Part shown: positions 11,349 to 64,000 of the stretch, piece after piece
Position numbering within the stretch: position 1 is the first letter of the stretch
Layout of the letters: the number at the start of each line of letters is the position of its first letter
Source of the DNA: Camelus dromedarius
Lineage: Eukaryota
NCBI RefSeq assembly: GCF_036321535.1
Contig: NC_087436.1
Coordinates: 11,346,001 to 11,410,000, forward strand
Length of the DNA: 64,000 bases
Reading direction: 5' to 3'
The notes under the pieces: generated by a model
Databases searched by the model: none
Told to the model about the DNA's origin: nothing
The model's input: the letters and a program-made list of their open reading frames with translations, nothing else
Translations under genes and position numbers: made by a program

Positions 11349-11364
11349 TCTGGAAGTTGCATTT

Positions 11365-24900: not shown

Positions 24901-27680
24901 AGATTTTTTTTTTCTCTCACAAGAAGGCAAAAGGGGGCAAACTTAAACTTGCTTAACAGTAAATGTTTCAATATTTTATCTTAATTAAAATGATCTAGAC
25001 CTTTTCTTTTTGATGGCTTAAGTATATTATCTTGATAAAAATGACCCAGGCTTTTTAGGAATTTTGATCAATTAACTTAATTTAGCAAAACTCTCTAAGG
25101 TTTCAAGTTACTAAGAATCTGGAAAAGCTAAAACATTTTTTCTAAACAGTTTATCTAAAAGCTTTTACATTATTTATCTCTATTTTATTACTTAAGACAG
25201 TATTGTCATACTGAGTTAATTTTCTTGCTGGCATTTTTCAACATACATAAAGTGAGTTTATTGACTTTCAGTAAACCTGGGTACAATAAAAGTAATATAC
25301 TTAATAATGATGACTTTAAAGATGTCTGTATTAATTAACAAACCTTAATTCTAATACTAGATAGTAATTTAAATACTGAATATTCACCAGATCATGTGAA
25401 CCTGAAATTTATTTTGGTTAATTTTTTTTTTTTTTTGTATTTAGAAATGTTTGATTTGTAAGCCCTTCCTTACCTTTTTTTAAAAAAATCCAATTGAAAA
25501 GAGCTCCTTTGCAAAACAAATTTCCCTTTTTGTAACAATAAACAACATGCAAATGGAAAGATAAGAAATCATGACCACCCATGTTATGGCAATTTACCTG
25601 CAAGGTGTAAGACCAAAATTAACAGTTGGAATAAGTTAAATTTACTTACTTGAGTTTAAAAAGCCTCTTTCCTGCTTCTTTTCCTTTGGTTTGAAGTTTT
25701 ACTAAATAACCCATTGCTTTACTCTCAGGCAACGTGGGCTGTGCTTATTTTTTAAGGACATGATGAGATCTGTAACTTCAGGGTTTCTCCTAGGAATATT
25801 TTTGTTCCCTCAGGGTCAAAATTATGGGGAAAAAAAGAAGTGTTTTATCAAGCCAAACTTTTTAACCTGTATATACAAAAAGAATCAGTTTTGGGTTTTT
25901 TTTTTTTTTTTTTGCATGCCGAGTTTAAAGAATATTACGGCTACTTAAGGTTAAGGAAAAAAGTATCTTCTTCCTAAACGTAATTAAAGCTCTCCCAGTT
26001 TTTGCAAAATACACCCTATGGAACAAGAGCAGGATGGAACAGGGCTCTCATTTCCCATTGTTCTTTCAAGAGGCTGGTGTGACCAGAAACAGACAGGTCA
26101 GGACTAAAGCCCTGTTTCTTTCACCCCAGAACTGAAAGCTCTGTGGGCAGCAATGCCTGGTCAGAGGCAGCAGTCAGCACTGTCCCTGAGACAGAAGTGC
26201 TCAGGTAGCTGCTGGACAGAATCCCAGAGCCACTGGCCAGGGGCCAATGCTCCACAGGCAACAGGCCCAATTAACATGGAGCCCAGGACAAAAGTGGTCC
26301 CCAGTTACTCCCATAGACCTGCTCTAACAAACCCCAGGCCACTGGCCACTGCAGAGAGCACTGCTGCCTCAGACCTTGACCTTCCCATCAATTTTTAACA
26401 ATATACACTGTAGACCAGGTCCAATCCCTGCTTCATTATATGTAACAGTCTATACCACTCACTAAGCAGACAAGGAGAGAAATCACAGGAGTACATGGCT
26501 CAGAAATGTTCCCAGGTGGGGAATAACTGATTTTCCCAGAAATAGCAGTGAGCTGAGAGCAGTCTGTAGCCTCTACGGCTCCACTGACTTACATAGTCAC
26601 AAAGGTCCTTTCCCCACAAATACTGACTTTGCTTAGAAAAATAGCATTGGGGCTTACAACGTGAAGTCAAACAAGGACAGTCATCCAGGTGCACCACAGT
26701 CAAAGAGACATGCAGAGGGGAAGCAATTCCAATGGTGCCTGAACCAGCCCCTGGGGATCAGTCTTGGATTTTCAGATTCAGGCCAACCTTCCCAGTCAGC
26801 AGAATAGACAACTGAAGAGAACAGACCAGACACAACAGAGCAGATGAAGGACTCCCGCCTCCTTGCTAAGAAAAAAAAAAGGGGGGGAAAGGAAAAGAAG
26901 GGGAGTAAGAGAAAGAGAAGAAAGGGGAGAAGCCATGCCTGCCTGTGACAGATGGACCAAAGCCAAAGCCCCGGCAGTGTAGCAGCCGCCCCAAGGACAC
27001 TGAAACAAAAGCGCTTCAGGCAGCTCTGCCCTCTGCCCCAGAAGGAATCTCCTCCTCTGGGATCCCGGGAGCCTGGGGGCCCAAAGAGGTCCTGGCTCAG
27101 CCTCCCTCCTAGAAGGGCTCCCCATCTTACGTCACTAGGCCCTTTCCAGATTCTTGGACAGCAATACCAGAGAAATGACTATCATTTCCACAGGACTCTT
27201 AGGCGAGCAGAGCTTTGTATTAAAAGAGATCCCTTGTGCACAAGGGAAAAGGTGGAAAAACGTTACACCTCCTCGAGCAGAAGGGGCAAGTTTTGCTTTT
27301 ATAACAAAAAGGGAGGGGTTTGTTTCATGATCACAGACATTTCCATAATGTGTCAAACTTCTTTGATCAGCACCAGAAGGCTCCCCAGTGACTATCAGGA
27401 ATGGGGAGTGTTTCTGTGAGGGGGGAAAGGAGGCATGAGAATTTTCTGCAGGAAAACACAGGGACAAAAGGAACAGGAAATTGATAGTTGAACTTCTTGT
27501 CTTGTGGCAATTATGTGCACTTGTTAGTGTCACAGAGATAAAGTTATTCTTTAAGCCTGTTTCTTTTTTGTTTCTTTGCTTCTAGGACTCAGGCCCCCAG
27601 GGCCTTTGTTCTTGAGCCTAAAGGCATGCTTTGCTCAAATTGCTATCCAAAATGACTGTGCTCTTCTCTTCCTGTCTCAG
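21945..27680 (-). mobile_element. Old non-autonomous ERV provirus with two LTRs (about 21945-22495 and 27130-27680) and an AT-rich internal region
   Basis: Two ~550 bp direct repeats, both beginning ..CCCTTTCCAGATTCTTGGA.AGCAAT..TATCATTTCCACA.GACTCTTAG and ending CTTCCTGTCTC, roughly 70% identical by eye. The internal region is AT-rich with no long ORF, like MER4-group internals. Confidence 0.7.
22545..22910 (-). mobile_element. LINE-1 3' end inserted in the ERV internal region
   Basis: ATTGAAGTATAGCTGATGTAC...CCCACTGGTAACCACTAGTTT...TAGATTCCACATGTAAGTG, an antisense L1 3'UTR. Confidence 0.75.
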
Positions 27681-29642
27681 AAAGAAAGTATTGTTGTCAA
27701 GTATTTGAAATGGCAGCCAACTCAGGTCAGTTACTTGTAATGGTAGGTCTGGCTTTGGGATTGCTGTAATCCCAGCATTTCCCTAAGAGACAGAGACAGA
27801 AAGGATCTGGACCCTTGGATTAGAGGGAGAGTGTGGCTCACAGAAGGGAGAGGAGCTGGCCTGTTGCCTGGGGCAGGAGCCCACTGGGAACAGTGGCTGG
27901 TGACCCTTGTGAAACTGTATCCACACAGAACATGTTCAGCCTGTAAAATAACAGATACAGAGTAGAGCAATGTATTCCTTTCCAAGGGCTGCCATGCAGA
28001 ACACCGCACATAGCTGGGGTGACTTCAACAATAGACACTGATTCTGTCACAATTCTGGAGGCTGGAAGCTGCCGATCAAAGGGCCAGGAGGTTCACTTAC
28101 CCCTGAGCCCTGGCTCGGGGACTCCCAGGGGGCTGCTTCCTGCCTGGGACCTCCTTTCCTCCGTGGGTGCCTGTCCCAGACGTCTCTTCCAAGGTGACCA
28201 GTCAGTGTTGAACTAGGGCCTCTCCCCAGCAGCCTCATTTTAACTTAATCAACATTTTACAGCCCTTCTCACCACAAAGAGTCCCATTCCGATGTGCTGA
28301 GATTTACAGATTCAATATAGGAACTGTGCATGGGGGGAGGGGAGGACACACGGTTCAGCCAACATGTCCCATGTTCACATCCAGTGAGTCTCCCCCACCC
28401 TTCCCTGCTCCTCCTCACTGTGAAGCCGGTCCTGGTATCACAGGGTTTTATATGTAAACAGTGTACTGTGTAGCTTTCCTGTTGAGTCTCTTTTCATTAA
28501 CAAAATCACATTAATTAACCATTACCAGGCATCTGCTGTCCTAACTGACTACAGTTGCTTTTTGTTTGGAAATGTATGTATTTGAATCCAGGAAAAAAAA
28601 AAAAAACTGGTAAAACACTGTCGATTATGTACATGGTGTTTATCTCCTTAATGTGTGTTCTTTCCCCCGTGTTAGCATTTTCTGGAAGGAGCTGCTGAGC
28701 TGTGCGGAGACTGGCCCACGTCTGGATGTGCTGACTGGCCCACGCTGGGGATCCTCACGGCCACCTGGAGCTGGGCTGTCCCTGAAGGAGAGGACGACCT
28801 CTCAGGCCTCGATTTCCGGCCACCGAGTGAAAGGGACCAAGGTGCCCAAGGCAGCGGAGGCTCCTGGGGCTCCGGGCCCTGCGGCTGCGGCTGTGGAGGT
28901 GAAGGAAGGGGCAGGACTCGGCCCCACTGCACACAGCTCCCTGGGTCCTGGGAGACCCACGGGCGGGCGTGAAGGCCAGAGAGAAGGTGGCGGGTCGGAA
29001 GCTTGTCCCTGTCCCAGCCCCTGGAGAGCCGGGCTTCTCTGAGGGCGTCTCCCCTGACAGGACCCCTCCCGGCACGATGGCCCTGGCGGCCTCCCTGGCG
29101 CAGCTGCACGCGGAGGCCAGCTGCCCCATCTGCCTGGACTGCCTGACGGACCCGGTGACCACGGGCTGTGGGCACAACTTCTGTCACGCCTGCCTCCAGC
29201 AGCGCTGGGAGGGGCTCCGGGACCTCTTCCCCTGCCCGCTCTGCCTGCAGCCCTGCCCTGAGCGCAGCTGCAGGAGGAACAGCCAGTTAAGCCACCTGGC
29301 TGACGCTGTGAGGCAGCTTCCCAGCACGAGGGCCAAGAGGGGCCGGCAGGGGGAGGCCCCCCTGTGTGAGAAGCACAGTCAGGCCCTGAGCCTGTTCTGT
29401 GAGGAGGACCTGGAGCTGCTGTGTCCCCAGTGCAGGCTCTCCTCTGAGCACCGCCACCACCCCCTAGTGCCCGTGGAGCAAGCTGCAGTGTGTCACAGGA
29501 GGAGGCTCAAGGGCTACCTGGAGCCCCTGACAAAGCAGCTGGAAGCTGCTGAAAAGGGCTTAGAAATGCAAGTCTCCAAGTCATTTGAGTTGGTGTCCAA
29601 CATGGAGAATCAAAGGAGCAAACTGCACTCTGAAGTTGAACA
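26998..29642 (+). repeat. Inverted duplication arm A (near-identical to 61367-64000)
   Basis: The reverse complement of 61367-64000 aligns along the whole stretch, with about 25 substitution or indel events by eye. I see only 2 between about 28660 and 29640. Confidence 0.95.
27970..28365 (-). mobile_element. MLT1 (ERVL-MaLR) LTR; mirrored copy at about 62635-63022
   Basis: Antisense MLT1 hallmarks: AGGGCTGCCAT..., CACAATTCTGGAGGCTGGAAG, CCTCATTTTAACTTAAT, GGACAC..TTCAGCC. Confidence 0.7.
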
Positions 29643-30462
29643 CTTTAAGCGTTTCTTGGGAACAGAGCATGACGAAATTCATGTTAAGCTGCTAAATGAA
29701 GAAAAGAGTGTTGTAGATAAAATAACTGGGAAAAAAATCCAAATATCAGACCACGGATCCACGTTGAAAAGTCTGCTTTATGAAATAACCAACAAGTGTT
29801 CCCAGACTGACCTGGATTTACTCACAGGCATTGAAAGAATCCACAGAAGCTATGAAAATTTAGAGAGCCCAGCAGCCTTTTGGTCTGAAGTGAAGAAGGA
29901 GGTTTTCACTCTCCCCCCACAGTATTTTGGCTTGCACAAAATGATCAGCACCTTTCAGGTCCATTTGACACTGGAGCCTGAAACTGCTCACCACAGCCTC
30001 CAAATTTCACAAGATCGGAAAACTGCAACTTTTCGATGGATGGAACCAAACTGTGTTCATCCTCCCCAAGTGTTTACTTCTTACCCCGCTGTCCTGAGTT
30101 CAGAGGGTTTTGATGCTGGCAGGCATTTTTGGCAGGTAGAAGGCAGAGGCAGTGGGGAATGGTCCTTAGGGGTGTGTAAAGAATCTTTCCCTAGAAATTC
30201 TCTTGTGTCACCTTCCCCAAGCAATGGCTGCTGGCAAATTCAGCTCTGGGGAACCACCCGTGACACACGGGTTTCAGGAAATGCCTGTCGGATTGGCATT
30301 TTTCTGGACTATGATTTGGGAGAAGTTTCTTTTTACAATTTGAATGATAGGTCTCCTTTGTATATATTCAGTGACATTTTTACAGAAAAACTTATGCCCT
30401 ATTTCTCTATTAGACCTTCTTCTAAATCACTTACAATAAGTATAGTTGAAGATGAGTGCTGA
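29077..30462 (+). CDS. TRIM60/TRIM75-like paralog A, 461 aa (RING/B-box2/CC/PRY-SPRY), uninterrupted CDS
   Basis: ATG in a strong context (ACGATGG) begins MALAASLAQLHAEASCPICLDCLTDPVTTGCGHNFC. It has a B-box (CEKH..C....CPQC....H..H), LEPETAH and IGIFLDYDLGEVSFYN. AATAAA lies at 30524-30529. Confidence 0.9.
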   Translation: MALAASLAQLHAEASCPICLDCLTDPVTTGCGHNFCHACLQQRWEGLRDLFPCPLCLQPCPERSCRRNSQLSHLADAVRQLPSTRAKRGRQGEAPLCEKHSQALSLFCEEDLELLCPQCRLSSEHRHHPLVPVEQAAVCHRRRLKGYLEPLTKQLEAAEKGLEMQVSKSFELVSNMENQRSKLHSEVEHFKRFLGTEHDEIHVKLLNEEKSVVDKITGKKIQISDHGSTLKSLLYEITNKCSQTDLDLLTGIERIHRSYENLESPAAFWSEVKKEVFTLPPQYFGLHKMISTFQVHLTLEPETAHHSLQISQDRKTATFRWMEPNCVHPPQVFTSYPAVLSSEGFDAGRHFWQVEGRGSGEWSLGVCKESFPRNSLVSPSPSNGCWQIQLWGTTRDTRVSGNACRIGIFLDYDLGEVSFYNLNDRSPLYIFSDIFTEKLMPYFSIRPSSKSLTISIVEDEC

Positions 30463-32529
30463 GCCACTTTGGAAGACTTTCTGTATGATCCACGTTCTTG
30501 CTATGTTCTTGGCAAGTCCTTGCAATAAAGAGTCTGAGTCCATCTTTGATGTCTGACTGCTGATGTCTTTTCACCCTCACCCTCGGGCCTCCCCTGTGCC
30601 CCACATCTGGGCAAGCTGTCAGGACAGCCTGGAGGCTCCTTCACTGGGCTAAGCAAGGCGGTTCTCACCCAGGACGGTCCTGGCTACAGAGGAGCTTTCC
30701 CCAGCAACAACCCCCTCAGACTAGTGGCTTTTCTCTTTTCTCTGAAGACACTTCTGGACCAGTGGCCGCCCTGATTTCACACAAGGCCTCAGTGAGTGGT
30801 AATAAACGGTATGTTGTGGCAGTCTTGACACAGGTAAATTTTGAGTGGCTGGGGTTTTGCCTCAGTGGGTTGACCAGAGCACTCCTTAGAATATCGTTTG
30901 ATTCCAGTTTTTCAGATATTCGGATCCCAGGGGGATGCTACATTCATCTTTGTTTTTCAAGTATCAGAAGACAGGTAGTTTTAGCCTTTGTTTTTTAAAA
31001 CTATATTTGTGATTCCCATTTCTCCACAGAAAGGTGTGGGTGGGATTCTGTTACAAATTCCTTGAAATTTTTAGTTACAAAAATAATGTTTCACAACCGG
31101 TTCTTCTGAAAATTTCTACCACAAGACATCTAATTTGTCTTACATTGCAGTGAATGTCAGTGAATGTTGAAAAATAATACATGTAGATCGACATGGACAA
31201 CTATGAAAAAGCTCTCTGAAATGCATGGTTTTAGCTATTGTAAGTAAATGGCAGGTGCAGATGGGTTCATTAAAATGTCCTTCCTAACAAAGTTAAGGAC
31301 CTTCACAACAGAGTAAAGGATGACTCTCTGATAGGAACAACTGAAGGAAATTTGTGATCTACACATGGGTTTTGAGGCCATGGCACTAGTTTATACAGAC
31401 AAATTTGGATTTGAAGTCAGGTCCTGCAAAATCTCCAGTAACAGGACCTAAATCTTTTGCCAAATAATATCTCTGTACGATTAAATAACGTGATTGCCAC
31501 AGACACAAACATATTAAAAATAAAGCATAAATTGACTATTAATTTATCACCTATCAGGTTTATCTGTGAAATTTATTATTACTTTACACCCACACTTTCA
31601 AGGGAAATCTGAAATTTAGGTTTGCTTGTTGTAATTTTGTCATATTTCCTGTTTTTAACCCAATGATCATTTTTTGCAAGTATCAGCAAATAAGTTTCCT
31701 TTCCTTTTTTTTTTTCTTGTAGCTCTAGATAATAGGTATATCTATTAATAGGTAAATGTGGTATATACAGTGTGGTATACTTTTAAAAATACTGATTAAT
31801 ATTCATTATTTTTAAAAGTTACCTGATTATAGTACAAATATAAAAATTACAGTATATAAGGTCATAATGGTCTCCCACTATGCTGGATCTCCCAGTCACA
31901 TATTTTTACTTTTCACAGATAAACATTTCCTAGATCTTCATGTATACCACACATATTTTAAACACATATGTACTAACACAAACACATCCACACATTCAAA
32001 TGGTGGTATATTACACACCATTATGATTGTTTTTCATTTTTATTTTGTTTACACCTTTACATTATTTTGGAAATTGATATTTCAATACATATAAATGGTC
32101 ATTCTACTTAAAGCATCATCAGTCCAATTTGGATGCACTATAATTCACTTAAGCAATCCTCCAATGATGAACTTCACTTGTGACAGTATTTTCTCAAAAT
32201 CAGTAGGACAACAAATAACCTTGGGTATCTATCTTTCACATGTATGGGACACCACTTTATGAAAAATTCCTTAAAACCTCAGAATCCTTAACACAGCATT
32301 CTAGGCCTCGCCGCTACAAATCAATCAGCACTGTCCTGAGATGAAGCCTGTTTGTCATTATTGGCATAGCAAGTAATCCATATAATTTAATGTCCATTTC
32401 CTTCTCAAAAACAAACAAACAAACAAAAGATTTCAGGAGATACCTGTCGGATTGGTGTTTTGGATTGCTGAGTCAACGGTACACGCTGCATTTCCAATGC
32501 TCATACTGGCAGATTGCCCCGTGAGTAGG

Positions 32530-32680
32530 ATATTGGCAAACTACTGCCTGCAGACTGAATCCAGCCCAGTACGTGCTTTGGTAAAAAGGGCTGAATTGGA
32601 ACACGGCAGGCCATTATTTGCTGTATTATCTATGGCTGCTTTCATGCTACAGTGGCAGCACTGAGTAACTGCCAAGAGAT
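32530..32680 (+). mobile_element. MER58-like DNA transposon fossil; inverted paralogous copy at about 59340-59490
   Basis: GGCAAACTAC...AATCCAGCCC...TTGGAACAC...TCTATGGCTGCTTTCATGCTACAGTGGCAG resembles MER58A. Confidence 0.6.
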
Positions 32681-33239
32681 CATATATACTATATAAAAAA
32701 TTCTTAAAGAATATTAAGTTACTCTCTCCCTCAAAAGTCTCTAAGGACCATTTCATAGACTACAACAATGCCTATCATGGCCTTGTGACCCTACCAAAAA
32801 AAAAAAAAAAAAAGGTTGGCTCTCCCTCTAACTCACCTCTCTGATCTCACTGTTAACTTTTTCCACTTCACTGACTTCCTCTATGTGTTGGCCTCCTTGC
32901 TGTCCCGGGCTTGCCAATCCCATCCCCATAACATTTGCTCTAGCCATTCATTCTGCAGTGCTCCACCAATGCTATTCCCTCATCCAGTTTGCATTCTTTA
33001 TTCTCTAAGACGCCTACCCTGACCGCCAGTCTTCACGGCTGACCCTTTCCCACACACAGTACTCTCGTGCTGTTGACACTGATCAGCTTCTCCCTGTTCC
33101 TACAGCACTTTCTCAGCCTGAAAGAACTGTAGCAATCATTTATTATTTGATTGTCTTTTTTCTCCATTCTAGAAGTACACTGCTCCAGGACAGGAATCTT
33201 TTGTTTTGCTCAGCTAGTACAATTCTGGATTGAAGGTAT

Positions 33240-33545
33240 CTGCTTAGTTTTATATGTCAGTGTTGCTGGGCCTTGGTGCCCATACATGTTGTCAAATAGT
33301 ATTCTAGCTATTTCTCTGAGACTGCATTTGGATGAGGTTAACATTTAAATTGGTGGACTTTAAGCAGACTGCCATCCAAAGTGTGGGGGAGCCTCACCCA
33401 ATCTGAATAGAACAGAAGACTGACCTACAACGAACAAGAGGGAGTTCAGCCAAAGGATGACTTTCGGATTTCAGCTGCAGCCTAGAGTCTTCTCTGGTTA
33501 ACAGTATACGTCCTATTGCTTGTTTCTCTGGAGAATCCTGACAAA
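33240..33545 (+). mobile_element. MLT2-like (ERV-L) LTR, internally deleted
   Basis: TTTTATATGTCA...GGATGAGGTTAACATTTAAATTGGTGGACT...TTTCTCTGGAGAATCCTGAC resembles MLT2 ends. Confidence 0.6.
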
Positions 33546-34417
33546 TGGAGTATCTCAGAATTCAGCAAGATAAATGAACAAACAAAACTCAAACTTTTAG
33601 GAATAAAAATATTTAAACACTATAAAAAAAATCAGTATCCAAAGTATCAAGAATCAGACTGGTATCACACTTCTCAAAAACAACGATAATGAATTATATG
33701 GAAACATTTTCATCACAACACTCCAAAATGAAGAGAAACAAGCAGGAAGATACAGGATTAAACCAATAAGGAATCCAAGATTGGAGGACAAGTCCCAGGA
33801 TAGTGGGGTGGGATGATAACTATATATATATAGCTTGTCCAGATTGCAACATGAGATTCAGAACCATGTTCACAAGGGAAAAAAACCTTAAGATTACCTA
33901 TGATTTGCATAAATGTGTATAGGGAAAGGGTTTTTAATAGGCAAAAATCCTCATTATTCATAAGTATCAGTCAGTTGTGTCAACTGGTAACAGACACATA
34001 AAGAACAGAACATGATATTAAGGTATATAAGATATACGGAGGTAAACAGAAAAATCCACTAAAAAGAAAGGTAGGTATGTGGTAAGGAGGACTGTTGACA
34101 AGATTTATATCACTGTAAAGAAATAACTGTAACTAAAAAACAATTTACGGGCAATTTCAACAGCAAATCATTTATTGGATGTGTCAAGTAATATAATTCT
34201 CAACTACTTCATCTTAGAAATAAACAGAACTTGAAAACTGATACCTATAATACCTATGAAATTGGCATTACTACCATGTTTTTATTGTTACTGAAAATGC
34301 AGACTACAAATCTATTCTGGTTTTCAGCAGCAATCCTTAAAAACAGTCCCAGGATTACTGAAGCTAAATTTCCTAAGTTGTCGCTAAACACTGATGCTGT
34401 ACTGTTTCCCAGGTACT

Positions 34418-35833
34418 TCAACTTTCATCAGCTGTTACTGAAGATATTTTAAGAGGTTCCGAATCGATCCCAGTATAGAAGTAGGGGCAAATGGCTTCTG
34501 TAAATGAATCACTAAAACTATAGAGAAGAGATCTGTCACTCAGATTGTAAAAGGAAACCTCACCCAAGTCATAGTCCAGAAAAATGCCAATCTTACTGGG
34601 TCCTACCATGGGCAGGAGACGGTTTCTCTTAGGACCCGACACAACATAAATACTCTCAGCATACCGCCCAACTGCCCAGAATCCACCCTCAACCACTGGC
34701 TGACTCCGCCAGTTCCTAGGAAACCAGTCTTGACACACCCCCAATGTCCATTTAGGCTTGTTTCCCACTTCTACCTCCCAGTAATGCCTACCAGAATGGA
34801 ATCTGTTACAACCCAGGACAGCAGGGCAGAGATAAAATCTCCTTGGGTTATAACAAAGGCTTTGTTTTCTCTTCTCATATCGCACAATTTTTCTATCCTC
34901 AGAGACAATAAGCTGCGGATGTGCTGTTTCAAGGTCTAGAATCACATCTACTTGAAATGGCTTGATAATTCTGTCAAAGCCAGAATACTGTGGAGGAAGG
35001 TTAAACCCATATTTCTTTAGTTGGAATGAAAAGCGTTCAGGAGGGGTTAGGTTTTGATACCTGTGGTGGATACTCTTAACCTGCCTCAGTACTTCCAGGT
35101 CTGACTGCACACACTTACCCTCTACCTCCCTCAGCAGATGTTTCAATGAGGAAACATGATCTGTAAATGTTACAAAGTTTTCATTTAGTTTTGCTAAAAT
35201 CTCCATCTCTTCATCTTCCATCTGCCGAAGAATATCCTCTTGCTGATTTTGTAGAAACAGTCTAAGTTGCTCAAATTCAGAATGTATTTCTTCTCTCCTA
35301 TATTTCACCTGCTTTCTCAGTTCAACTGATTTGCTGGCTTGCAGAGTTAGCACTTTTTCAACTTGTTCCATATTATCCTTCAAGGGCTTAATGGTACATT
35401 CCAGGATTTTCCTGTGATGAGAGGCAGCTTTCTTAATGGGGCAAATGCAGTGTTTCTGGTGCTGAATGGAGAAACTGCACTGTGTACATAAAACCTCTAG
35501 GTCCTTCCCACAAAAAAGGGTCAGAAGCTGGTTGTGCGTCTCACACATGGAACTCTCTTCCTGCCTCTTCCTCTTGCTCCTTCTGATCTGCAGCAGCTTA
35601 GCAATTTCAGTCAAATGGCTGAGCTGGGAGTTGCTCCTGATATTCCTGTCTTGAAAGCAAACACGGCAGACAGGACAGTGGGCGGGAGCACCCAGGCCCT
35701 TCCAAGTCCTGCTGATGCATGAGCGACAGAAGTTGTGCCCACAGTTGATCGTTACCGGGTCTTTCAAGTAGTCCAGGCAGATGGGGCAGCTAGACTCCTC
35801 CTGGAGCTGTACCAGCGCTGTCACAAACTCCAT
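34418..35833 (-). CDS. TRIM60: Tripartite motif protein 60, 471 aa, uninterrupted CDS
   Basis: MEFVTALVQLQEESSCPICLDYLKDPVTINCGHNFCRSC, IRRSKRKRQ, WEVEVGNKPKW and PSKIGIFLDY match TRIM60 as I recall it, including the length. Candidate AATAAA signals at 34281-34286 and 34171-34176; candidate acceptor TTTTTTCTTCCTTAG| at about 36119. Confidence 0.95.
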   Translation of the reverse strand: MEFVTALVQLQEESSCPICLDYLKDPVTINCGHNFCRSCISRTWKGLGAPAHCPVCRVCFQDRNIRSNSQLSHLTEIAKLLQIRRSKRKRQEESSMCETHNQLLTLFCGKDLEVLCTQCSFSIQHQKHCICPIKKAASHHRKILECTIKPLKDNMEQVEKVLTLQASKSVELRKQVKYRREEIHSEFEQLRLFLQNQQEDILRQMEDEEMEILAKLNENFVTFTDHVSSLKHLLREVEGKCVQSDLEVLRQVKSIHHRYQNLTPPERFSFQLKKYGFNLPPQYSGFDRIIKPFQVDVILDLETAHPQLIVSEDRKIVRYEKRKQSLCYNPRRFYLCPAVLGCNRFHSGRHYWEVEVGNKPKWTLGVCQDWFPRNWRSQPVVEGGFWAVGRYAESIYVVSGPKRNRLLPMVGPSKIGIFLDYDLGEVSFYNLSDRSLLYSFSDSFTEAICPYFYTGIDSEPLKISSVTADES

Positions 35834-41526: not shown

Positions 41527-41557
<31 letters not shown>

Positions 41558-49482: not shown

Positions 49483-49680
49483 GGGGGGAGGGTATAGCCT
49501 AGTGGTTAAGGGCCTGCCTAGCATGCTTGAGGTCCTGGCTTCAATCCCTAGCACCTCCATAAAAAAAGAAAAAAATTTTTATTTTTAATTTTTTGAGGGG
49601 GAGAGATAATTAGGTTTATTTATTTATGTATTTGTAGAGGAGGTACTGGGGATTGAACCCAGGACCTCATGCATGCTAAA
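49483..49680. mobile_element. Two vic-1-type SINEs in opposite orientation (plus about 49483-49575; minus about 49590-49680)
   Basis: GGGGAGGGTATAGCCTAGTGG...TTCAATCCCTAGCACCTCC, followed by GGAGGTACTGGGGATTGAACCCAGGACCTC (the reverse complement of a SINE head). Confidence 0.8.
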
Positions 49681-53320: not shown

Positions 53321-53349
53321 TCTTAGTGATGTCCGTGAATTTAACATAC

Positions 53350-54430
53350 AGGTCACTGTCTGGCCGCCCTTCCGCCAGGAGGGTACCACCATGTTCTCTT
53401 GGGGGGCGGGGGGCGTCGTGGGGCTCTCGGCCTGGGCTGTGCAGCTGCAATGGATCCAAGTTCAAAATACGGCAACCTTGAAAGATATTACCAGGTGACT
53501 AAAGTTGATCAAAAACATACAGAAAGTTACCAACTGTATCAAAATGGTAGCAGGAGCAAAATAAGCCCGAGCTGAGAGGGAGCTGAAACCAGCCGAGTGC
53601 AGGGAGTAGGATCCTTGGCTCTGCGTGCAAAGGCTGACGTAAAAGCGCCTGAAGACAAGAAGAAACACCTCCTCATCGGTGTGTCCTCAGACTCGGGGCT
53701 TTGTGGTGCTGTTCACTCCTCGGCTGCTAAACAGATAAAGCATGAGGTGGCCAACCTCCCAGCAGCTGGGAAAGAAGTGAAGATTGTTGGCGCTGGTGAC
53801 AAAATCAGGGGTCTACTTCACAGGACTCAATCTGACCAGTTTCTGGTGACATTCAAAGAAGTGGGAAGATGCATCAGTCATCACCCTTGAATCGTTAGAT
53901 CCTGGATATGAATTTGATGAAGGGTCTGTCATCTTAAACCAGTTCAGGTCTGTCGTCTCCTACAAGACAGAAGAAAAGCCCCATCTTTTCCATTGATGCC
54001 ACCGCAAGTGCTGAGAGCAGGCGTGTCTATGACGACACTGTGCTGACATGCAGCAGAACTCCCAGGGGTACAGCCTGGCCGTCGTCTGCTACTCGCCAGC
54101 GAGCAGACCGCCAGGATGATGGCCGTGGACAGCGCCAGCAGGGACACTTCTGAGATAGTTGACAAATTGACTTTGACATTCAGTCGTACCCGCCAAGCTG
54201 TCATCACAAAGGAGTTGATTGAAATCGGCTCTCGTGCTGCAGCTCTGGATTAATGAAAATCAAGTTTCATCCTCAGACAAGGGGTAAAGAAGAAAAATTC
54301 AGCCAGCTGGTTCTGTTTTTAGCTTACTGCTGTCCTTGTCGGAAGAAATTGTCGGTCCAGTGTTTGAATTACTAAAGACAGCAAGATATTTGTAAATTAT
54401 CTTACAATAAACCACTCACCATAAGAAAAT
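53350..54430 (+). pseudogene. ATP5F1C: Processed pseudogene of mitochondrial ATP synthase F1 gamma subunit (ATP5F1C)
   Basis: Intronless. ATG at 53391 is followed by [50 protein letters not shown] and AAALD-TAA (54251-54253). It carries stops, frameshifts and deletions, with AATAAA at 54406-54411 and a decayed A tail. Confidence 0.95.
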
Positions 54431-54449
54431 AAATTGACAAAATACAGTT

Positions 54450-56200
54450 CAAAGAGATAAGCCTCATCTTAACCTTCAGAACAATTACCTTGCCCAAATT
54501 CCCATAAGCACAGGGTACGTGGCCCTAAATATTTCAGAGAAGGTATGATTGCTCTGACCTGATGTAATAAATTAAAATTTAATTGATTTTTTGGAGATTA
54601 CTAATTCGCTTCACTAATGGGACCCCATGGGTGCTCCTACACCCAGTGAAAATAGATAATGTCACTAAATGTTAATTAAAACAGAGCATTCAAGTTTGAA
54701 ATCCATAATGCAAGACTTATTTAGAGTAGAAGTGGTTAGCCTGACTTCTCCAGATAACCCCAATTTGATCCGTTCTTAGACTTGAAAAGAGGGAATGGAA
54801 TCTCACAGTGCATGACCACAACCTAAATGCTGTGTTCTCACCCAATGTTGTCTACTTCCTGCTTCCATTCAACCAGCAGCTGGTAAATATCTGGCTGTTA
54901 TAGATTTGGCCCATATGTTCTGTTCAGGGCTTATTTCAACAGCTTCCCAGCCATAAATTTCCTTCACCTCCAGAGGGAAACCACGCACCTCTACCTGGCT
55001 ATCCCAGCGCCTCAACAGCCTTGCCTTGGCCCATGTCTTTGCAGGCAAAATCTAAACTGCAATCAACTTCTCCAGAGGCACAAATATGACTTACCTTGTT
55101 GATATCATCCCCCACAGAGATCAATTTGAAAAACTCAGGACGCACAAAGGACTCACAAAGGAGTTTACAGCAGGGGAATGAGTCATCGCCCCACACATAT
55201 TGCAAGGTCCTCCTACTTTGTTGAAACTCTTGAAAATTATTTGGTAACTGAGGGCAGCTTTGTCCTAGACACTGTCAGGAGATAGCTAGTGACCCTTTCC
55301 GCACCCAGAACGTGAAAACAAGCCCAACATCTTCTAGGACTTTTTGGGTTCTGAAGGCAACATATTCCTCATTATAAATTTTACTTCAGGCTGTTTATGA
55401 TGTTACTTGGGGATCAACCCACGTTGAATGGGACTGCCACCATGAAAAGGCTCTAGACACTGTCTAGGCTGGAATCCCATTAGTGCCCCAGGGACATCTT
55501 CTCTGTGGGGCTTCAGCAACTGCCTCATGCTTCCTGGAGACTCTGGACCACAGTGACAGCCACAGGTTCCCCTGGGCTCCTGGTGCTGCACCCTGACCTG
55601 CTTGGATATGTGCCGTGGCCGTTGTCGACGTAACCCTCCATCCCAGCCGCCCACAGTGCCTTAAATTATGGGCCAGAAGCCCACCAGCACACCACAGCTA
55701 CCCAGACCACCTTGCTACCAAACGGAGCCAACCCCAGACCCTCTGGCACATCACCCCTGCAGGAGGGATGGTCTTTCCTCTTCTCAGTTGCTACTTTGCA
55801 TCATGCTGTGGTATTAAAGGAGGTCACCCCTCCCAGACTGCTTGGTTAGCAGGGAGCTGCTTGGGGCCACTTGAGGGAACAGCAGTGAGCGTTCCTATAC
55901 TGCATGGATGGTACCACCTCGGTCACACATAATGAGCTCAGGGGAGATTTGTTGCTTTTCACTCTTTTACAGGACTGTTACTGACAAGTGATGGAACCCA
56001 AGGATCAGTATAATTGGCTGAACCTCAGACAGTCATTCTAGCACACATTTAACCAATAATCAGCCCACATGCACATTTTTACAGACTCTGGGGCCATTGC
56101 CTGTAAAGAGTTGCCCCCTCCGGGTCAAGAGCTCTGACTTCACAGATACTCAAGATATCAGTCAGTGTCACAGAGACCTCTACAGGTACCACAGCCTGAA
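54450..56200 (+). mobile_element. Degenerate ERV-L-like pol remnant
   Basis: An RT-like stretch VIDLAHMFCSGLISTASQP*ISFT at about 54897, and KQAQHLLGLFGF* at about 55316; many stops. Confidence 0.65.
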
Positions 56201-57129
56201 TGCAAGTCCTCCCCTGGGCACTCTTCTTCCCCTATGGAGTTTCAGACATTCCTGATGGTGACCAAAGACTCATTTCCCTTCTGGGAGTACACCATGCTGA
56301 ATTCCTGAACAAGGCATTTGCTGGAACTTCCTACCAGATGCATCAGCTGGAAATCTGTTAGAAATGCAAGTTGCCAGTCCTCACTGCAGACCTGATGAAT
56401 CCAGAATCTCTGGGCTTGACCCAGCAATCTGTTTTCAGTAGCCCTCCAGGGAATTCTGACTCTGGCTCAACTTGATCAAAAGCATCATTTTCAGGGCTGA
56501 ATAGTGAACAACTATATGACCAAAATACAGTTTACTTAATGCATTCTACTGTCCATGCAAGGATCTTTATGACATCTGCTAAAAAACAAAATTCAAGTAT
56601 GTAAATTTGAAGACTCAGGTGACTTTATTCAAAGATTCATGAATCAGGCAGCATCCTATCTGGAAACTAGAAGGGCACTTAGGTAGTAAATCTAGGTCTG
56701 GTGTCATGGCTTTTAGCATGAGTGACGTCATTCTGGGACCGCGGTTTCCATTTTACACATCTTACCTTGTGTCTTTCTTTCACTGTGCCAAGTGGAACAC
56801 TCATCTTTAAAGGTCCTTTCATTTGAAATCCTGGCTGGAGGCATAGTTTTTTTGCATTTCAAAGAATCATGCAGAACAAACTTGTTATGAATGAAAAATA
56901 AGACAGAAAATGAGAAAGAGAGAGGTGTTGGGGTAAGGGTGAGGTACAGCCACTTTACATGAAATCTTCACGGAAAACCATTACAAAAGTGACATTAGAA
57001 CAAAGCCCCAAAGGAAATGTGGGAGTGAGGGCTACAGATGATGGAGAGAAGTGTGGTCCAGGAAGAGGGAAGTGCAACAGCAAACACCCTGAGGCAGGAC
57101 CATGCCCCACATGTCAAAACAGGAAGGAG

Positions 57130-57792
57130 TATAACTGAGCAGGACCCTATGGGGGATTCTGGGGACACCCCCGCCCCGCCCCCACCGTGTCCTCTGCCTG
57201 TCTCTTGTTTATAAAAACACTGTAGTCTCCCAAGCCTCCCCTGAGTCACAGAAGCCTGGCTTAAGCGTTAACGATTGAAAGAATATGAACATGTAGTGAC
57301 AACAGAATATTGGCAGTTGGGCCAGAAGAACTGGTAACAATTTAAATAGTAAATCAGCCTTACAGCAGTCACAGAATCTTTAGTTCCTCCCTGAAGGGCA
57401 TAGATAGCAGTGTCTGATGCACATTCCTGAGTTGTTTTACAGATACTGAAACCTCTACCAGATGGAGGAAGTGACTGCACATCAGCATGGAGCAACCAGA
57501 GCAGCTGGAGTCTGAGGGCCGATGATGGTTACCCCTGTGACTCCACCCTGTTACCTCACCATCAGCCAATCAGAGGACTGTGCACGAACTGACCGTGTGC
57601 CCTGGGATGCCCCGTTTCACCTTATCTTTACAAATGCTTCCCTGAAGCCCATTGGGGAATTTGGTCTTTTGAGCATTAGCTGCCCCAAATCCTTGCTTGG
57701 CACCTGCAGTAAACACTGCACGTTCCTTCAACACACTCAGTAGATTGCCTTTCTCTGTGTAGGCAAGTGAACCCAAGTTTGGTTCAGTAACA
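57130..57792 (+). mobile_element. Solo ERV LTR
   Basis: TATAACTGAGCAGGACCCTATGGGG...CCAATCAGAG...AGTAAAC...GAACCCAAGTTTGGTTCAGTAACA, related to the LTR at about 45996. Confidence 0.65.
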
Positions 57793-59837
57793 GGTGGATT
57801 CAGCAGAGTAATTAAAGGGAGGAGAAATACTCTGTGACTGCAAAAGGTGGCAATGACCAGGTTGTACTGGCTTGGAGACCACGTGACAAGTTGACATGAT
57901 TTCTGAGTGAGATGAAGTTTTGAGAAGACGAATGACAATGTTTGGTTTATGTTTAAGGGATCACCCTAACTGTTGGTCTGCACAGGGACTACAGTGAGGA
58001 ACAGGGCAGGAGGCAGAGGAAGCAGGGAAACTCCCTAGGAGGCTATTGCAATATTCTGAGCATTTCATGATTGTAACTTGAACTAGCCAGGTCATTGCAG
58101 ATGGAGAGGTAATAAGAGATCCAATCTTGGTTTATTGCAAGAATTATCGTATAATGATCTGATCACTAATGTGCTCATCCAATCTGTAAAGAACTATTCT
58201 AGGGATCTGGGAAGCTTACAAACTAGAAACTAGTCTAATTTTCACGCTGTCCAGAAACTCCTGGAAAACTCTGCTAAGCCAGCTTCCCCATTCTAGGCTG
58301 AGATGGACTAAAATAACCTACTTCTGGAGGCAGCCTCAGGTCTCAGGGACTCAGCCTGGTTTGATCCATGTCTGGTAGCTCTCAGATTTCTCTCAGTGTC
58401 TTGGTTCTCCTGAACATAACCCCACCCCTTCAACCTTAATTCAGAATCAGTCTCTGTCTCCTTGGCTACTGGAAAACGGGACATTGGAGAAGAGCATGCT
58501 CTGATTTAATTTTTAAAAGAACACTTGGTTATTAAGGATAAAAACAGTGTGAAAGCACAGAAAGCATTTAGGAGACTTTTATAGGAATCTAGACAAGACA
58601 GGATGATGGCAGAGTCTAGAATGTTAGAGTAGAGATTGCAAGCTGAAAGATTCAGCAAGTGTCTGAAGAACTTTTTAGTGGAAAGGATAATTGAAGAGTA
58701 AGAGAAAAAAAGAAATGAAGCATAAAACCTACCATTTTTGGCTTCAGCAAATGGATAAGTGTGGCCATTGTTGGTAAACATGTTGACAGATTGGAGGAAC
58801 CCAGGCTTATGGGGGAGATATCAAAAGCTGTGATTTTCCCACAGACGGTACAACGGCACATCTATCTGCATCCATCTGTGCGCCGTGTATGGCTATCCAC
58901 ACACACTCCCCTCGACAAATGTTAATGTGGAGGAATAGAGAAAGGATTACAGGGGTATAAACCAAGTTTTAATCCTATTACCCACTCCTAAGGAAAGTAA
59001 GATTAGAACTGAGTAAAGAAGGAAGCTTTACAATTTTTACCTATATTTGTATGAGAAGGTTCTAATGGTTTTATAATTCAAACATTAAATAATAACAGCT
59101 GCAGTTGTGATAGTATCACTGAAAATTCTAATCTGAAATAAAAATCAGCACAATACCGTAGTCTGCCTAGTTCCCTGATAAATCTTAAGTTTGATAAGGC
59201 ACTGGGCTTCTAAAGATATGAAGAAACAAAGTACTTTCTTATATTTCTGGTGAAAGTGTATGTTGATAAAACTATAGTTGAGGTGGGAAAATTGTCACTA
59301 AAAGTATCAGGGAGTATTTAAGATTTTGTGAGCCATAGGATCTCTACAACAACTGCTCTACGTGGCCACTGTAGCATGAAAGGAAGTCCTGGACAATACA
59401 GCACCAAATGACAAGGCTGTGTTCCAGTTCAGCCCTTGTACCGAAGCCTGCCCTGGGCTGGATTCAGTCTGCAGGCAGTAGGTTGCCAATATCCTACTCA
59501 AGAGGCAATCTGCCAACATATATCAACATTGTAAGTGTGGCATGTACCTTTGACTCAGCAGTTGATTTTGTTATACAAATTTTGAGGAGAAAATGTTGGG
59601 ACAATTTAGAAGGCCATCATGAAAGGATTGCCTAAATGAACTACAGCACGTCCAATTGGAGTGATGACACTTTAAGTAGAATGAGTATTTACAAGCGTTG
59701 ATATGTTGTCATGTTTAAGACAATGTGAAGGCATTAACAAAACTAAGCATAAAACATAGTCAGAATGGTGTATATAACACACCATCATTTGACTGTGTGT
59801 GTTTGTGGCTACATTTGTGTTTAAAATATGTATGGTA

Positions 59838-59870
59838 ATACATACATACATACATACATACACACATACA
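59838..59870. repeat. (TACA)n microsatellite
   Basis: ATACATACATACATACATACATACACACATACA. Confidence 0.8.
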
Positions 59871-60287
59871 AATAAATTTAAAAAGCAAAAACACCAAATA
59901 AAATATGTATGGTATACATGACCAGCCAGGAAGTGTTTATCTCTGAAAAAAAAAAAATGTGGCTGAAGGATCAGATTAGTGGGATTCAATTATAACTTTA
60001 CATCCTTTTGTAATTTTTATACTTGTACTATAATCCAGTGACTTCTAAAAATAGTTAATTTTTAAAATATAAATCCTATATATTACAGTATTTCAAAATA
60101 TTAACTATCTTTAAAGTATGTACCTACACATGCCACATGAATATAGCTATGTCCTTTGCATGCAGGACCTTCCTGAGTTGGAACCACCCTCCTCAGCCCA
60201 GTGAAGGAGCCCCCAGGCTGTCCTGACGGCTTGCCCAGATGTGGGGCAGAGGGGAGGCCCGAGGTTGAGGGTGAAAAGACATCAGCA

Positions 60288-60439
60288 GGGAGTAAGGCTG
60301 CACTTCAAGTGGTAGAGCACACGCTTAGTCTGCATGAGGTCCTGGTTTCAGTCCCCAGTATCTCCTTTAAAAACAAACAAACAAACCCAAATTACCTCCT
60401 CACAAAAATAAACAAAAAATAAAATTAAAAAAAAAAAAC
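60288..60439 (+). mobile_element. vic-1-type SINE with target-site duplication, downstream of paralog B
   Basis: CAAGTGGTAGAGCACACGCTTAGTCTGCATGAGGTCCTGG head plus an A tail. TSD AGACATCAGCA (60277-60287) / AGACATCATCA (60440-60450). Confidence 0.85.
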
Positions 60440-60546
60440 AGACATCATCAATCAAGACATCAAAGGTGGACTCAGACTCTTTATTACAAGGACTTCCCAC
60501 AAACATAGCAAGATCATGGATCATATAGAAAGTCTTTCAAGTTAGA

Positions 60547-61932
60547 TCAACACTCATTTTCAACTATACTTATTGTAAGTGATTTAGGAGAAGGTCTAAT
60601 AGAGAAATAGGCCATAAGTTTCCCTGTAAAAATTTCACTGAATGTATATAAATGTGATCTATCATTCAAATTGTAAAAGGAAACTTCTCCCAAATCGCAG
60701 TCCAGAAAAACGCCATACCGCCAGGGGTTTCCTAAAACCCGCGTGTCCTGTATCACAGCCCAGAGCTGAATTTGCCAGCAGCCGTTGCTTGGGGAAGGTG
60801 AGACAGGAGAATTTCTGGGGAAAGATTCTTTACACACCCCTAAGGACCACTCCCTCATGCCTCTGCCTTCTACCTGCCAAAAATGCCTGCCAGCATCAAA
60901 CCCCTCCGAACTCAGGACAGCGGGGTAAGAAGCAAATGCCTGGGGAGGATGAACACAGTTTGGTTCCATCCTTTGAAAGGTTGCAGTTTTCTGATCTTGT
61001 GAAATTTGGAGGCTCTGGTGAGCAGTTTCAGGCTCCAGTGTCAAATGCACATGAAAGTTGCTAATCATTTTGTGCAAGCCAAAATACTGTGGGGGGAGAG
61101 TGAAAACCTCCTTTTTGACTTCATATGAAATGGGTGCTGGGCTCTCTAGGTTTTCATAGCTTCTGTGGATACTTTTAATGCCTGTGAGTAAATCCAGGTC
61201 AGACTGGGAACACTTGTTGGTTATTTCATAAAGCAGACTTTTCAACGTGGATCCATGGTCTGATATTTGGGTTTCTTTGTCAATTATTTCATACTGAACA
61301 CCTTTCTCTTCAGCCTGTAACACGAAGTCAATTACATTGTGCTCTGTTTTCAAGAAATTCTTAAAATGTTCAACTTCAGAGTGCAGTTTGCTCCTTTGAT
61401 TCTCCATGTTGGACACCAACTCAAATGACTTGGAGACTTGCATTTCTAAGCCCTTTTCAGCAGCTTCCAGCTGCTTTGTCAGGGGCTCCAGGTAGCCCTT
61501 GAGCCTCCTCCTGTGACACACTGCAGCTTGCTCCACGGGCACCAGGGGGTGGTGGCGGTGCTCAGAGGAGAGCCTGCACTGGGGACACAGCAGCTCCAGG
61601 TCCTCCTCACAGAACAGGCTCAGGGCCTGACTGTGCTTCTCACACAGGGGGGCCTCCCCCTGCCGGCCCCTCTTGGCCCTCGTGCTGGGAAGCTGCCTCA
61701 CAGCGTCAGCCAGGTGGCTTAACTGGCTGTTCCTCCTGCAGCTGCGCTCAGGGCAGGGCTGCAGGCAGAGCGGGCAGGGGAAGAGGTCCCGGAGCCCCTC
61801 CCAGCGCTGCTGGAGGCAGGCGTGACAGAAGTTGTGCCCACAGCCCGTGGTCACCGGGTCCGTCAGGCAGTCCAGGCAGATGGGGCAGCTGGCCTCCGCG
61901 TGCAGCTGCGCCAGGGAGGCCGCCAGGGCCAT
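60547..61932 (-). CDS. TRIM60/TRIM75-like paralog B, 461 aa (497 aa if the upstream in-frame ATG at 62040 is used)
   Basis: Protein identical to paralog A over the first 191 aa, then diverged; frame intact. AATAAA on the minus strand at 60480-60485. Confidence 0.9.
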   Translation of the reverse strand: MALAASLAQLHAEASCPICLDCLTDPVTTGCGHNFCHACLQQRWEGLRDLFPCPLCLQPCPERSCRRNSQLSHLADAVRQLPSTRAKRGRQGEAPLCEKHSQALSLFCEEDLELLCPQCRLSSEHRHHPLVPVEQAAVCHRRRLKGYLEPLTKQLEAAEKGLEMQVSKSFELVSNMENQRSKLHSEVEHFKNFLKTEHNVIDFVLQAEEKGVQYEIIDKETQISDHGSTLKSLLYEITNKCSQSDLDLLTGIKSIHRSYENLESPAPISYEVKKEVFTLPPQYFGLHKMISNFHVHLTLEPETAHQSLQISQDQKTATFQRMEPNCVHPPQAFASYPAVLSSEGFDAGRHFWQVEGRGMREWSLGVCKESFPRNSPVSPSPSNGCWQIQLWAVIQDTRVLGNPWRYGVFLDCDLGEVSFYNLNDRSHLYTFSEIFTGKLMAYFSIRPSPKSLTISIVENEC

Positions 61933-64000
61933 CGTGCCGGGAGGGGTCCTGTCAGGGGAGACGCCCTCAGAGAAGCCCGGCTCTCCAGGGGCTGGGACAG
62001 GGACAAGCTTCCGACCCGCCACCTTCTCTCTGGCCTTCATGCCCGCCCGTGGGTCTCCCAGGACCCAGGGAGCTGTGTGCAGTGGGGCCGAGTCCTGCCC
62101 CTTCCTTCACCTCCACAGCCGCAGCCGCAGGGCCCGGAGCCCCAGGAGCCTCCGCTGCCTTGGGCACCTTGGTCCCTTTCACTCGGTGGCCGGAAATCGA
62201 GGCCTGAGAGGTCGTCCTCTCCTTCAGGGACAGCCCAGCTCCAGGTGGCCGTGAGGATCCCCAGCGTGGGCCAGTCAGCACATCCAGACGTGGGCCAGTC
62301 TCCGCACAGCTCAGCAGCTCCTTCCAGAAAATGCTAACACGGGGGAAAGAACACGCATTAAGGAGATAAACACCATGTACATAATCGACAGTGTTTTACC
62401 AGTTTTTTTCTGGATTCAAACACATACATTTCCAAACAAAAAGGAATTGTAGTCAGTTAGGATAGCAGAGCCTGGTAATGGTTAATTAATGTGATTTTGT
62501 TAATGAAAAGAGACTCAACAGGAAAGCTACACAGTACACTATTTACATATAAAACCCTGTGATACCAGGACCGGCTTCACAGTGAGGAGGAGCAGGGAAG
62601 GGTGGGGGAGACTCACTGGATGTGAACATGGGACATGTTGGCTTAACCGTGTGTCCTCCCCTCCCCCCATGCACAGTTCCTATACTGAATCTGTAAATCT
62701 CAGCACATCGGAATGGGACTCTTTGTGGTGAGAAGGGCTGTAAAATGTTGATTAAGTTAAAATGAGGCTGCTGGGGAGAGGCCCTAGTTCAACACTGACT
62801 GGTCACCTTGGAAGAGACGTCTGGGACAGGCACCCACGGAGGAAAGGAGGTCCCAGGCAGGAAGCGGCCCCCTGGGAGCCCCCGAGCCAGGGCTCAGGGG
62901 TAAGTGAACCTCCTGGCCCTTTGATCAGCAGCTTCCAGCCTCCAGAATTGTGACAGAATCAGTGTCTATTGTTGAAGTCATCCCAGCGGTGTTCTGCATG
63001 GCAGCCCTTGGAAAGGAATACATTGCTCTACTCTGTATCTGTTATTTTACAGGCTGAACATGTTCTGTGTGGATACAGTTTCACAAGGGTCACCAGCCAC
63101 TGTTCCCAGTGGGCTCCTGCCCCAGGCAACAGGCCAGCTCCTCTCCCTTCTGTGAGCCACACTCTCCCTCTAATCCAAGGGTCCAGATCCTTTCTGTCTC
63201 TGTCTCTTAGGGAAATGCTGGGATTACAGCAAACCCAAAGCCAGACCTACCATTACAAGTAACTGACCTGAGTTGGCTGCCATTTCAAATACTTGACAAC
63301 AATACTTTCTTTCTGAGACAGGAAGAGAAGAGCACAGTCATTTTGGATAAGGACCCCAGAAGCAATTTGAGCAAAGCATGCCTTTAGGCTCAAGAACAAA
63401 GGCCCTGGGGGCCTGAGTCCTAGAAGCAAAGAAACAAAAAAGAAACAGGCTTAAAGAATAACTTTATCTCTGTGACACTAACAAGTACACATAATTGCCA
63501 CAAGACAAGAAGTTCAACTATCAATTTCCTGTTCCTTTTGTCCCTGTGTTTTCCTGCAGAAAATTCTCATGCCTCCTTTCCCCCCTCACAGAAACACTCC
63601 CCATTCCTGATAGTCACTGGGGAGCCTTCTGGTGCTGATCAAAGAAGTTTGACACATTATGGAAATGTCTGATCATGAAACAAACCCCTCCCTTTTTGTT
63701 ATAAAAGCAAAACTTGCCCCTTCTGCTCGAGGAGGTGTAACGTTTTTCTACCTTTTCCCTTGTGCACAAGGGATCTCTTTTAATACAAAGCTCTGCTCGC
63801 CTAAGAGTCCTGTGGAAATGATAGTCATTTCTCTGGTATTGCTGTCCAAGTATCTGGAAAGGGCCTAGTGACGTAAGATGGGGAGCTAGGAGGGAGGCTG
63901 AGCCAGGACCTCTTTGGGCCCCCAGGCTCCCGGGATCCCAGAGGAGGAGATTCCTTCTGGGGCAGAGGGCAGAGCTGCCTGAAGTGCTTTTGTTTCAGTG
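61367..64000 (-). repeat. Inverted duplication arm B (runs off the window end)
   Basis: The last window bases reverse-complement to 26998 onward (CACTGAAACAAAAGC.CTTCAGGCAGCTCTGCC). The ORF track gives mirrored, near-identical peptides for both arms. Confidence 0.95.

Follow-up and report, generated by a model that had tools for sequence, protein, structure and literature searches.

Inverted paralogs in described systems and in a camelid TRIM cluster

Palindromes of the X and Y chromosomes have inverted arms of tens of kilobases, gene families within the arms and a gene in the spacer, and they undergo GC-biased conversion from arm to arm (PMC8327919; PMC8981503). In primate X palindromes intrachromatid non-allelic homologous recombination (NAHR) inverts the spacers; of the spacers that can be compared between species about half differ in orientation, and 18% of European X chromosomes carry one of them in inverted form (PMC8327919). 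Here we describe a similar arrangement in a 64,000-nucleotide stretch of the Camelus dromedarius genome (G000:C1:11346001-11410000, hereafter the window), where two TRIM60-like paralogs, A on the plus strand and B on the minus strand, converge with TRIM60 between them. The camel locus shares with the X and Y palindromes the long inverted arms, the gene families in them, the gene in the spacer and what appears to be GC-biased conversion between the arms. Unlike them it is presumably autosomal, judging from synteny with the cluster on human chromosome 4 (PMC5737536), its arms form a patchwork of 83-100% identity (mean 95.9%) rather than exceeding 99%, and conversion stops inside the open reading frame (ORF), leaving two distinct specificity halves. 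We propose, with a probability of roughly 0.85, that this is a real inverted duplication in which long-running, GC-biased and patchy conversion between the arms homogenises the catalytic half of the genes and leaves two old recognition halves distinct. The camelid TRIM60/61/75 cluster would then be organised as a gene-converting palindrome, with one half of an E3 ligase gene evolving in concert and the target-recognition half divergent for as long as camel and alpaca have been separate. Scans for orthology and selection would be misled at such a locus unless the two gene halves were analysed apart.

The layout of A, TRIM60 and B is nearly the same as that of RHD and RHCE, which are arranged tail to tail at a distance of about 30 kb with TMEM50A in between, and for which gene conversion and inversion-recombination hybrids are reported (PMC12962860). 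RH genes are multi-exon genes whose hybrids alter antigens, whereas the 5' halves of the camel genes encode identical residues and hybrids would be silent at the protein level. CTRB1 and CTRB2 are, like A and B, oppositely transcribed near-identical paralogs, and in humans a 16.6-kb inversion swaps their promoter, exon 1 and intron 1, leaving the mature proteins unchanged and altering the ratio of isoform expression (PMC6145291). This is a known form of the invertible cassette that the first-pass annotation had proposed for A and B, in which a crossover between the repeats would join each outer promoter to the coiled coil and SPRY domain of the other paralog. At CTRB1-CTRB2 both orientations are documented and disease-associated, whereas the camel locus was read in one assembly and its proximal upstream DNA is homogenised. 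In bacterial invertible switches (Hin, shufflons and constant/variable systems) inverted repeats also flank a segment and a constant 5' part is joined to alternative 3' parts, in their case at short specific sites, by a dedicated site-specific recombinase and reversibly within a cell population. Unlike these, the camel repeats are kilobase-scale homologous DNA, with no recombinase among the window ORFs of at least 150 amino acids, and a flip, if one occurred, would be an infrequent NAHR event in the germline.

The inverted duplication and its patchwork of identity

The arms were mapped by self-blastn of the window with its fetched flanks (100 kb added, 164 kb in all). The arms, the spacer and the genes that they hold are as follows.

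1795-32656: left arm of the inverted segmental duplication, about 31 kb, made up of five collinear inverted blocks and weaker inner matches.
2033-3478, minus strand: TRIM75-like gene a, an ORF of 481 amino acids with RING, B-box, PRY and SPRY; TRIM75 or TRIM75-like in public sources.
29077-30462, plus strand: paralog A, TRIM60-like, an intact ORF of 461 codons with RING, B-box, PRY and SPRY.
32657-59364: spacer of 26.7 kb, which holds TRIM60.
34418-35833, minus strand: TRIM60, 471 amino acids, in the spacer between A and B; TRIM60 or TRIM60-like in public sources.
59365-64000: right arm, the part within the window; it continues outside to about 101655 in the window frame (G000:C1 ~11447655), about 42 kb in total.
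60547-61932, minus strand: paralog B, TRIM60-like, an intact ORF of 461 codons with RING, B-box, PRY and SPRY.
79978-81288 in the window frame (G000:C1 ~11425978-11427288, locus L010), minus strand, outside the window: paralog C, in the tandem duplication of the right arm; its frame meets a TAA at codon 437 and its end is disrupted.
99974-101419 in the window frame (G000:C1 ~11445974-11447419), plus strand, outside the window: TRIM75-like gene b, the mirror copy of a and the outermost gene of the right arm.

Pfam matches above the curated cut-offs run in the order RING, B-box, PRY-SPRY in A, B, TRIM60 and TRIM75-like a, and a coiled coil presumably lies between the B-box and PRY-SPRY in each. 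Their nearest named relatives are TRIM60-like, TRIM61 and TRIM75-like, and all seven genome matches to protein A at E <= 1e-40 fall within about 105 kb, in one cluster on one contig; they are A, B, C, TRIM60, the two TRIM75-like genes and a further TRIM60-like gene to the left of the window. The genes are thus class IV TRIM E3 ligases of the TRIM60/61/75 cluster. TMEM192 and APELA have been named as flanking markers of the cluster, and testis expression or specificity of TRIM60 in other species is mentioned from work cited in the same source (PMC10145180).

The five collinear blocks of the left arm lie at 1795-13415, 13424-13741, 13738-20755, 19443-24287 and 24292-30571, and weaker matches reach inward to 32656. 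Beyond 32656 and 59365 no further inward inverted match was found at E <= 1e-20. The right arm is longer because it contains a tandem duplication carrying paralog C and an insertion of about 2.7 kb. We therefore have two long arms in opposite orientation flanking a spacer, and use the word palindrome in the sense of an old inverted duplication with patchy conversion. At the outer ends the two TRIM75-like genes are essentially identical, with a perfect run of 1431 bp and 0-1 mismatch in each of the 500-column bins covering 1933-3432. The arms end about 240 bp past the stop codons of this pair.

The overall identity of the arms is 95.9% across 28433 aligned bases, and the 500-column bins alternate between two states. 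Bins of 98-100% identity (1933-3900, 15729-19700, 21900-24287 and 26267-29640, among others) form at least seven separate blocks, and between them lie blocks of 83-91% at 12393-13340, 14238-15729, 24292-26266 and 29641-30571. The A/B pair spans one of these transitions. The two genes are about 99% identical from the upstream DNA to codon ~185, where identity falls sharply to about 87%; in 100-column steps it is 98-100% of aligned bases to ~29586 and 78-94% thereafter.

26267-29640, plus strand: homogenised tract, A side; 2.8 kb of upstream DNA and codons 1-188, with 27/3350 mismatches.
61369-64000, minus strand: homogenised tract, B side, running on to about 64730 outside the window.
29641-30571, plus strand: 3' half of A, unconverted, with PRY-SPRY and the greater part of the coiled coil; 118/931 mismatches against B.
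60437-61368, minus strand: 3' half of B, unconverted; its coiled-coil part is near-identical to that of C.
24292-26266: outer arm block, unconverted, differing from its mirror by about 10% (187/1860 mismatches); the closest flank that is diagnostic for typing an inversion.

The homogenised tract measures 3.35 kb at 99.2% identity and contains perfect runs of 496, 336 and 314 bp. The longest was not reached in any of 10000 shuffles of the mismatch positions (0/10000), the shuffle maximum being 277 bp. A GC-rich stretch upstream of A (28600-29077) lies inside the tract.

These data bear out what the first-pass annotation had said of the geometry: blastn, mismatch counts and substitution rates all place the near-identical parts of A and B outward and their divergent C-terminal halves inward around TRIM60. 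Within the window the inverted repeat pairs 26998-30571 with 64000-60437 (blastn 95.2% over 3587 columns, E = 0), and a repeat search of the window returns seven inverted pairs of 217-1080 nt at 88-100%. The repeat is real over the extent that had been given, 26998-64000, but its start at 26998 was set by the end of the window; the tract begins at about 26267 and the repeat as a whole reaches about 1795. Extending the alignment past 64000, as the annotation had suggested, gives the ends listed above for the right arm and the B-side tract. The earlier description was of a pair, which is correct for A and B, and it missed the third paralog and the palindrome that contains all three.

Concerted front halves, mosaics and base composition

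Across codons 1-185 a single synonymous change separates A from B, and their amino acids are the same (synonymous divergence, dS, 0.008). Across codons 186-461 dS is 0.28 and the non-synonymous divergence, dN, is 0.10, a dN/dS of 0.36. Purifying selection was considered as the cause of the identity at the 5' end and rejected, as synonymous sites and the 2.8 kb of upstream non-coding DNA are equally identical.

The halves were compared as predicted proteins from Camelus ferus, C. bactrianus, C. dromedarius and Vicugna pacos. Over residues 1-175 paralogs of the same species differ at 0-2 sites and camel differs from alpaca at 6-7. Sites 99, 109, 124, 157 and 159 carry one residue in all alpaca copies and another in all camel copies, and site 153 is K in 4/4 dromedary-type copies and E in 4/4 bactrian/ferus copies. 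The C-terminal part behaves in the opposite way. A-type sequences of different species differ at 0-5/105 and 1-4/171 positions, whereas A-type and B-type differ at 21-24/105 and 28-31/171 both within and between species. The C-terminal half of A is orthologous to bactrian/ferus P0121 and alpaca P0125, and that of B to bactrian P0133 and alpaca P0003. In the maximum-likelihood (ML) tree of the C-terminal part an A clade (support 95/93) and a B(+C) clade (100/100) sit inside a camelid clade (100/98), which places the A/B duplication in the camelid lineage before the split of camel and alpaca. In the N-terminal ML tree the dromedary-labelled sequences (window A, window B and P0134) show no difference among themselves, the same holds for the two bactrian copies, and the two alpaca copies form a pair (85/86). 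The N-terminal protein halves therefore group by species and the C-terminal halves by ortholog, which is concerted evolution of the N-terminal halves only.

The end of the tract differs between records, at codons 175-179 in some and 185-192 in others. Over codons 179-185 window B and C are A-like, while the dromedary-labelled P0134/P0132, bactrian B and alpaca B keep B-type residues. P0134/P0132 also differ from window B at four further residues, some of which match C or A. These differences may reflect either patchy conversion that segregates as a polymorphism or a difference between assemblies. In a bactrian annotation and a second dromedary one the accession numbers are consecutive in a way that agrees with the order A, TRIM60, B; they speak to order only and are silent on orientation.

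A three-way comparison of DNA adds paralog C. Over 28580-29640 (coordinates of A) the three copies agree with 3 differences, over 29643-30070 B and C agree and A differs, and from about 30070 onwards A and C are closer and B differs. C is thus a mosaic of the common 5' half, a B-type coiled coil and an A-type SPRY. In bactrian/ferus C the coiled coil is A-type where that of window C is B-type, a difference that may represent segregating conversion tracts. Both mosaics appear to reflect non-reciprocal transfer, since the donor type is retained elsewhere.

Base composition changes at the same boundary. In A, B and C the GC content at third codon positions (GC3) is 0.83-0.84 in codons 1-185 and 0.40-0.42 in the remainder. 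The fully homogenised TRIM75 pair has 0.92 and 0.93 in the same two parts, and TRIM60 and its relative to the left of the window, both outside the arms, have 0.54-0.61 and 0.30-0.40. Converted coding sequence is thus enriched in GC3 (0.83-0.92, against 0.30-0.61 in unconverted sequence) in this within-genome comparison. GC-biased conversion has been described for X-chromosome palindromes (PMC8981503), and the GC3 pattern seen here is what long-term GC-biased conversion would be expected to produce.

Explanations for the shared front halves

The observations above are best explained by a model in which A and B occupy mirrored positions in an ancient inverted segmental duplication, a presumably autosomal palindrome, and their front halves are identical because the arms copy sequence onto each other. 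Repeated non-reciprocal recombination between the arms would reset patches to 98-100% identity, and other patches would keep the old divergence of 9-17%. In A, B and C one such patch would comprise the 2.8 kb of upstream DNA together with the half that encodes RING, B-box and the start of the coiled coil. The remaining coiled coil and PRY-SPRY would have escaped conversion since before the camel-alpaca split, so that in each species the A-type and B-type specificity halves would stay distinct and share a catalytic half particular to that species. The probable mechanism is heteroduplex repair between arms lying on the same chromatid, and divergence, selection or both may block conversion past codon ~185-190. 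By analogy with the systems described above, crossover resolution of the same intermediates would be expected to invert the middle.

Several points weigh against this interpretation. Identity above 99% does not extend along the whole arms, where only patches reach 98-100%, and the overall value is far below that of classical sex-chromosome palindromes. The cross-species evidence consists of predicted proteins from public annotations, some in superseded versions, rather than DNA. TRIM60 itself has a milder fall in GC3 from 5' to 3' (0.61 to 0.40), and part of the GC3 contrast may therefore be an effect of position within the gene. The identities come from one assembly, in which polishing or gap filling may have sharpened some of the 100% blocks, and one genome cannot separate conversion from past double crossovers.

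It is possible to imagine that the near-identical 5' halves, or the whole patchwork, arose in the assembly from collapsed or cross-polished paralogs. The differences between P0134/P0132 and window B, at codons 179-185 and at the four further residues, would agree with this. So would P0001, an older Camelus ferus gene model of 754 amino acids, in which the upstream and N-terminal segment occurs twice ahead of an A-type C-terminus. Most likely the repeated tract was misassembled in that older assembly or wrongly modelled there, which marks the locus as hard to assemble. However, the N-terminal identity of the paralogs recurs in proteins that carry bactrian, ferus and alpaca labels and in those of a second dromedary assembly, and the shared N-terminus is also present in the full A-type proteins encoded by four independent short-read contigs of 2.3-4.5 kb (P0002, P0129-P0131). 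The 164 kb contain no N letters, and the step in GC3 is compositional and beyond what polishing can create, which makes an artefact highly improbable. A single recent partial duplication, which would have pasted the 5' half and upstream DNA of one copy over the other without recurrent conversion, accords with the one sharp inner boundary near 29640 and the one outer boundary near 26267. It does not account for the seven or more separate blocks along the arms, the core at 28580-29640 common to three copies, or homogenisation that took place separately in alpaca, bactrian/ferus and dromedary, with states specific to each lineage, and the variable end of the tract also speaks against it. We rejected it on the blocks, the three-copy core and the lineage-specific states, and regard it as extremely improbable.

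The invertible cassette of the first-pass annotation, in which crossovers in the tract flip about 32 kb as a germline polymorphism and re-pair the outer promoters with the other coiled coil and SPRY to functional effect, starts from geometry that is correct. The tracts are inverted, paralogous and long in perfect identity, as NAHR needs. A crossover between them would by standard NAHR invert about 32-38 kb, TRIM60 included, and leave both ORFs open, and the precedents are good (primate X palindromes, PMC8327919; CTRB1-CTRB2, PMC6145291; RHD/RHCE, PMC12962860). Frequent conversion also implies that the arms pair often. The step in identity on which the proposal drew is, however, explained by gene conversion, because the 5' half evolves in concert across species and GC3 jumps at the same boundary. 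As the 185 N-terminal residues of A and B are identical, the proteins made from the two chimeras would be no different from A and B as they are now. Nor would the swap of promoters be expected to matter much. The annotation had itself allowed that outer arms identical through the promoters would make a swap inconsequential, and this is largely what we find: the 2.8 kb upstream, with the GC-rich stretch, lies in the ~99% tract, and the arms continue outward for about 27 kb to the duplicated TRIM75, remaining paralogous for about 24 kb past the tract. Only about a quarter of the near-identical arm sequence, on a rough reading of the blocks, falls in the A/B tract, and most flips would therefore move whole genes. 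The mosaics that are observed appear to be non-reciprocal. The annotation was right that no site-specific recombinase is visible, in so far as neither a recombinase nor a mobile-element agent was found among the six window ORFs of at least 150 amino acids (four TRIMs and two without a Pfam family), and in place of short specific crossover sites there are kilobase-scale paralogous repeats. The seven family matches on one contig include no haplotig copy that might carry the other orientation. We therefore consider a consequential cassette very unlikely; as an inversion switch it is unsupported by any observation and would be silent at the protein level. The idea also adds little, given that flips are already known from the X palindromes, RH and CTRB1/2 and that the proteins here would stay unchanged.

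A different version, which we also judge very unlikely, would have recurrent camelid flips in which crossovers in the 3.35-kb tract re-pair a diverged distal flank (for example 24292-26266) with the coiled coil and SPRY of the other paralog, shifting when and where each specificity module is expressed in the manner of CTRB1/2, with selection holding the conversion boundary at codon ~185-190 so that one catalytic module serves two recognition modules. Under arm-to-arm conversion, a flip of the middle by crossover is possible, and the known palindromes suggest that a neutral inversion polymorphism is likely. We also observed that B and C are direct repeats about 19 kb apart. With C in the arm, crossovers that involve it are as possible as those between A and B: one between B and C could delete or duplicate about 19 kb, and one between A and C could invert about 50 kb. 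Structural polymorphism, as inversion or as deletion and duplication between B and C, is likely at this locus. A limited search of the literature on gene conversion or segmental duplication of TRIM60, TRIM61 and TRIM75 gave no description of a camelid palindrome in the portions of the sources available.

Among the minor features, B has an in-frame upstream ATG at 62040, which would add 36 codons and is without a counterpart in A because of a single G/A difference (62040 / 28969). The 36-codon extension is carried on an A-type protein in the short-read contig proteins of other camels (P0129-P0131). The two window ORFs without a Pfam family, at 10696-11205 (plus strand, 169 amino acids) and 26952-27419 (plus strand, 155 amino acids), are probably open by chance, and the second falls within the homogenised tract. 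An element of about 500 bp occurs in the arms in direct and inverted copies of 73-75% identity (21945-22488, 27131-27619 and 63315-63872). The neighbouring arm DNA at 24000-26997 has many genome-wide matches of 65-79%, and such elements are therefore probably interspersed repeats. Outside the window an ORF of 338 amino acids looks LINE-like by eye. A further intact TRIM60-like gene of 473 amino acids lies just to the left of the window and the palindrome (G000:C1 ~11342256-11343677, plus strand, locus L015). It is 77% identical in DNA to the TRIM60 of the spacer and in the opposite orientation, a relation that may be the trace of an earlier inverted duplication surrounding this one.

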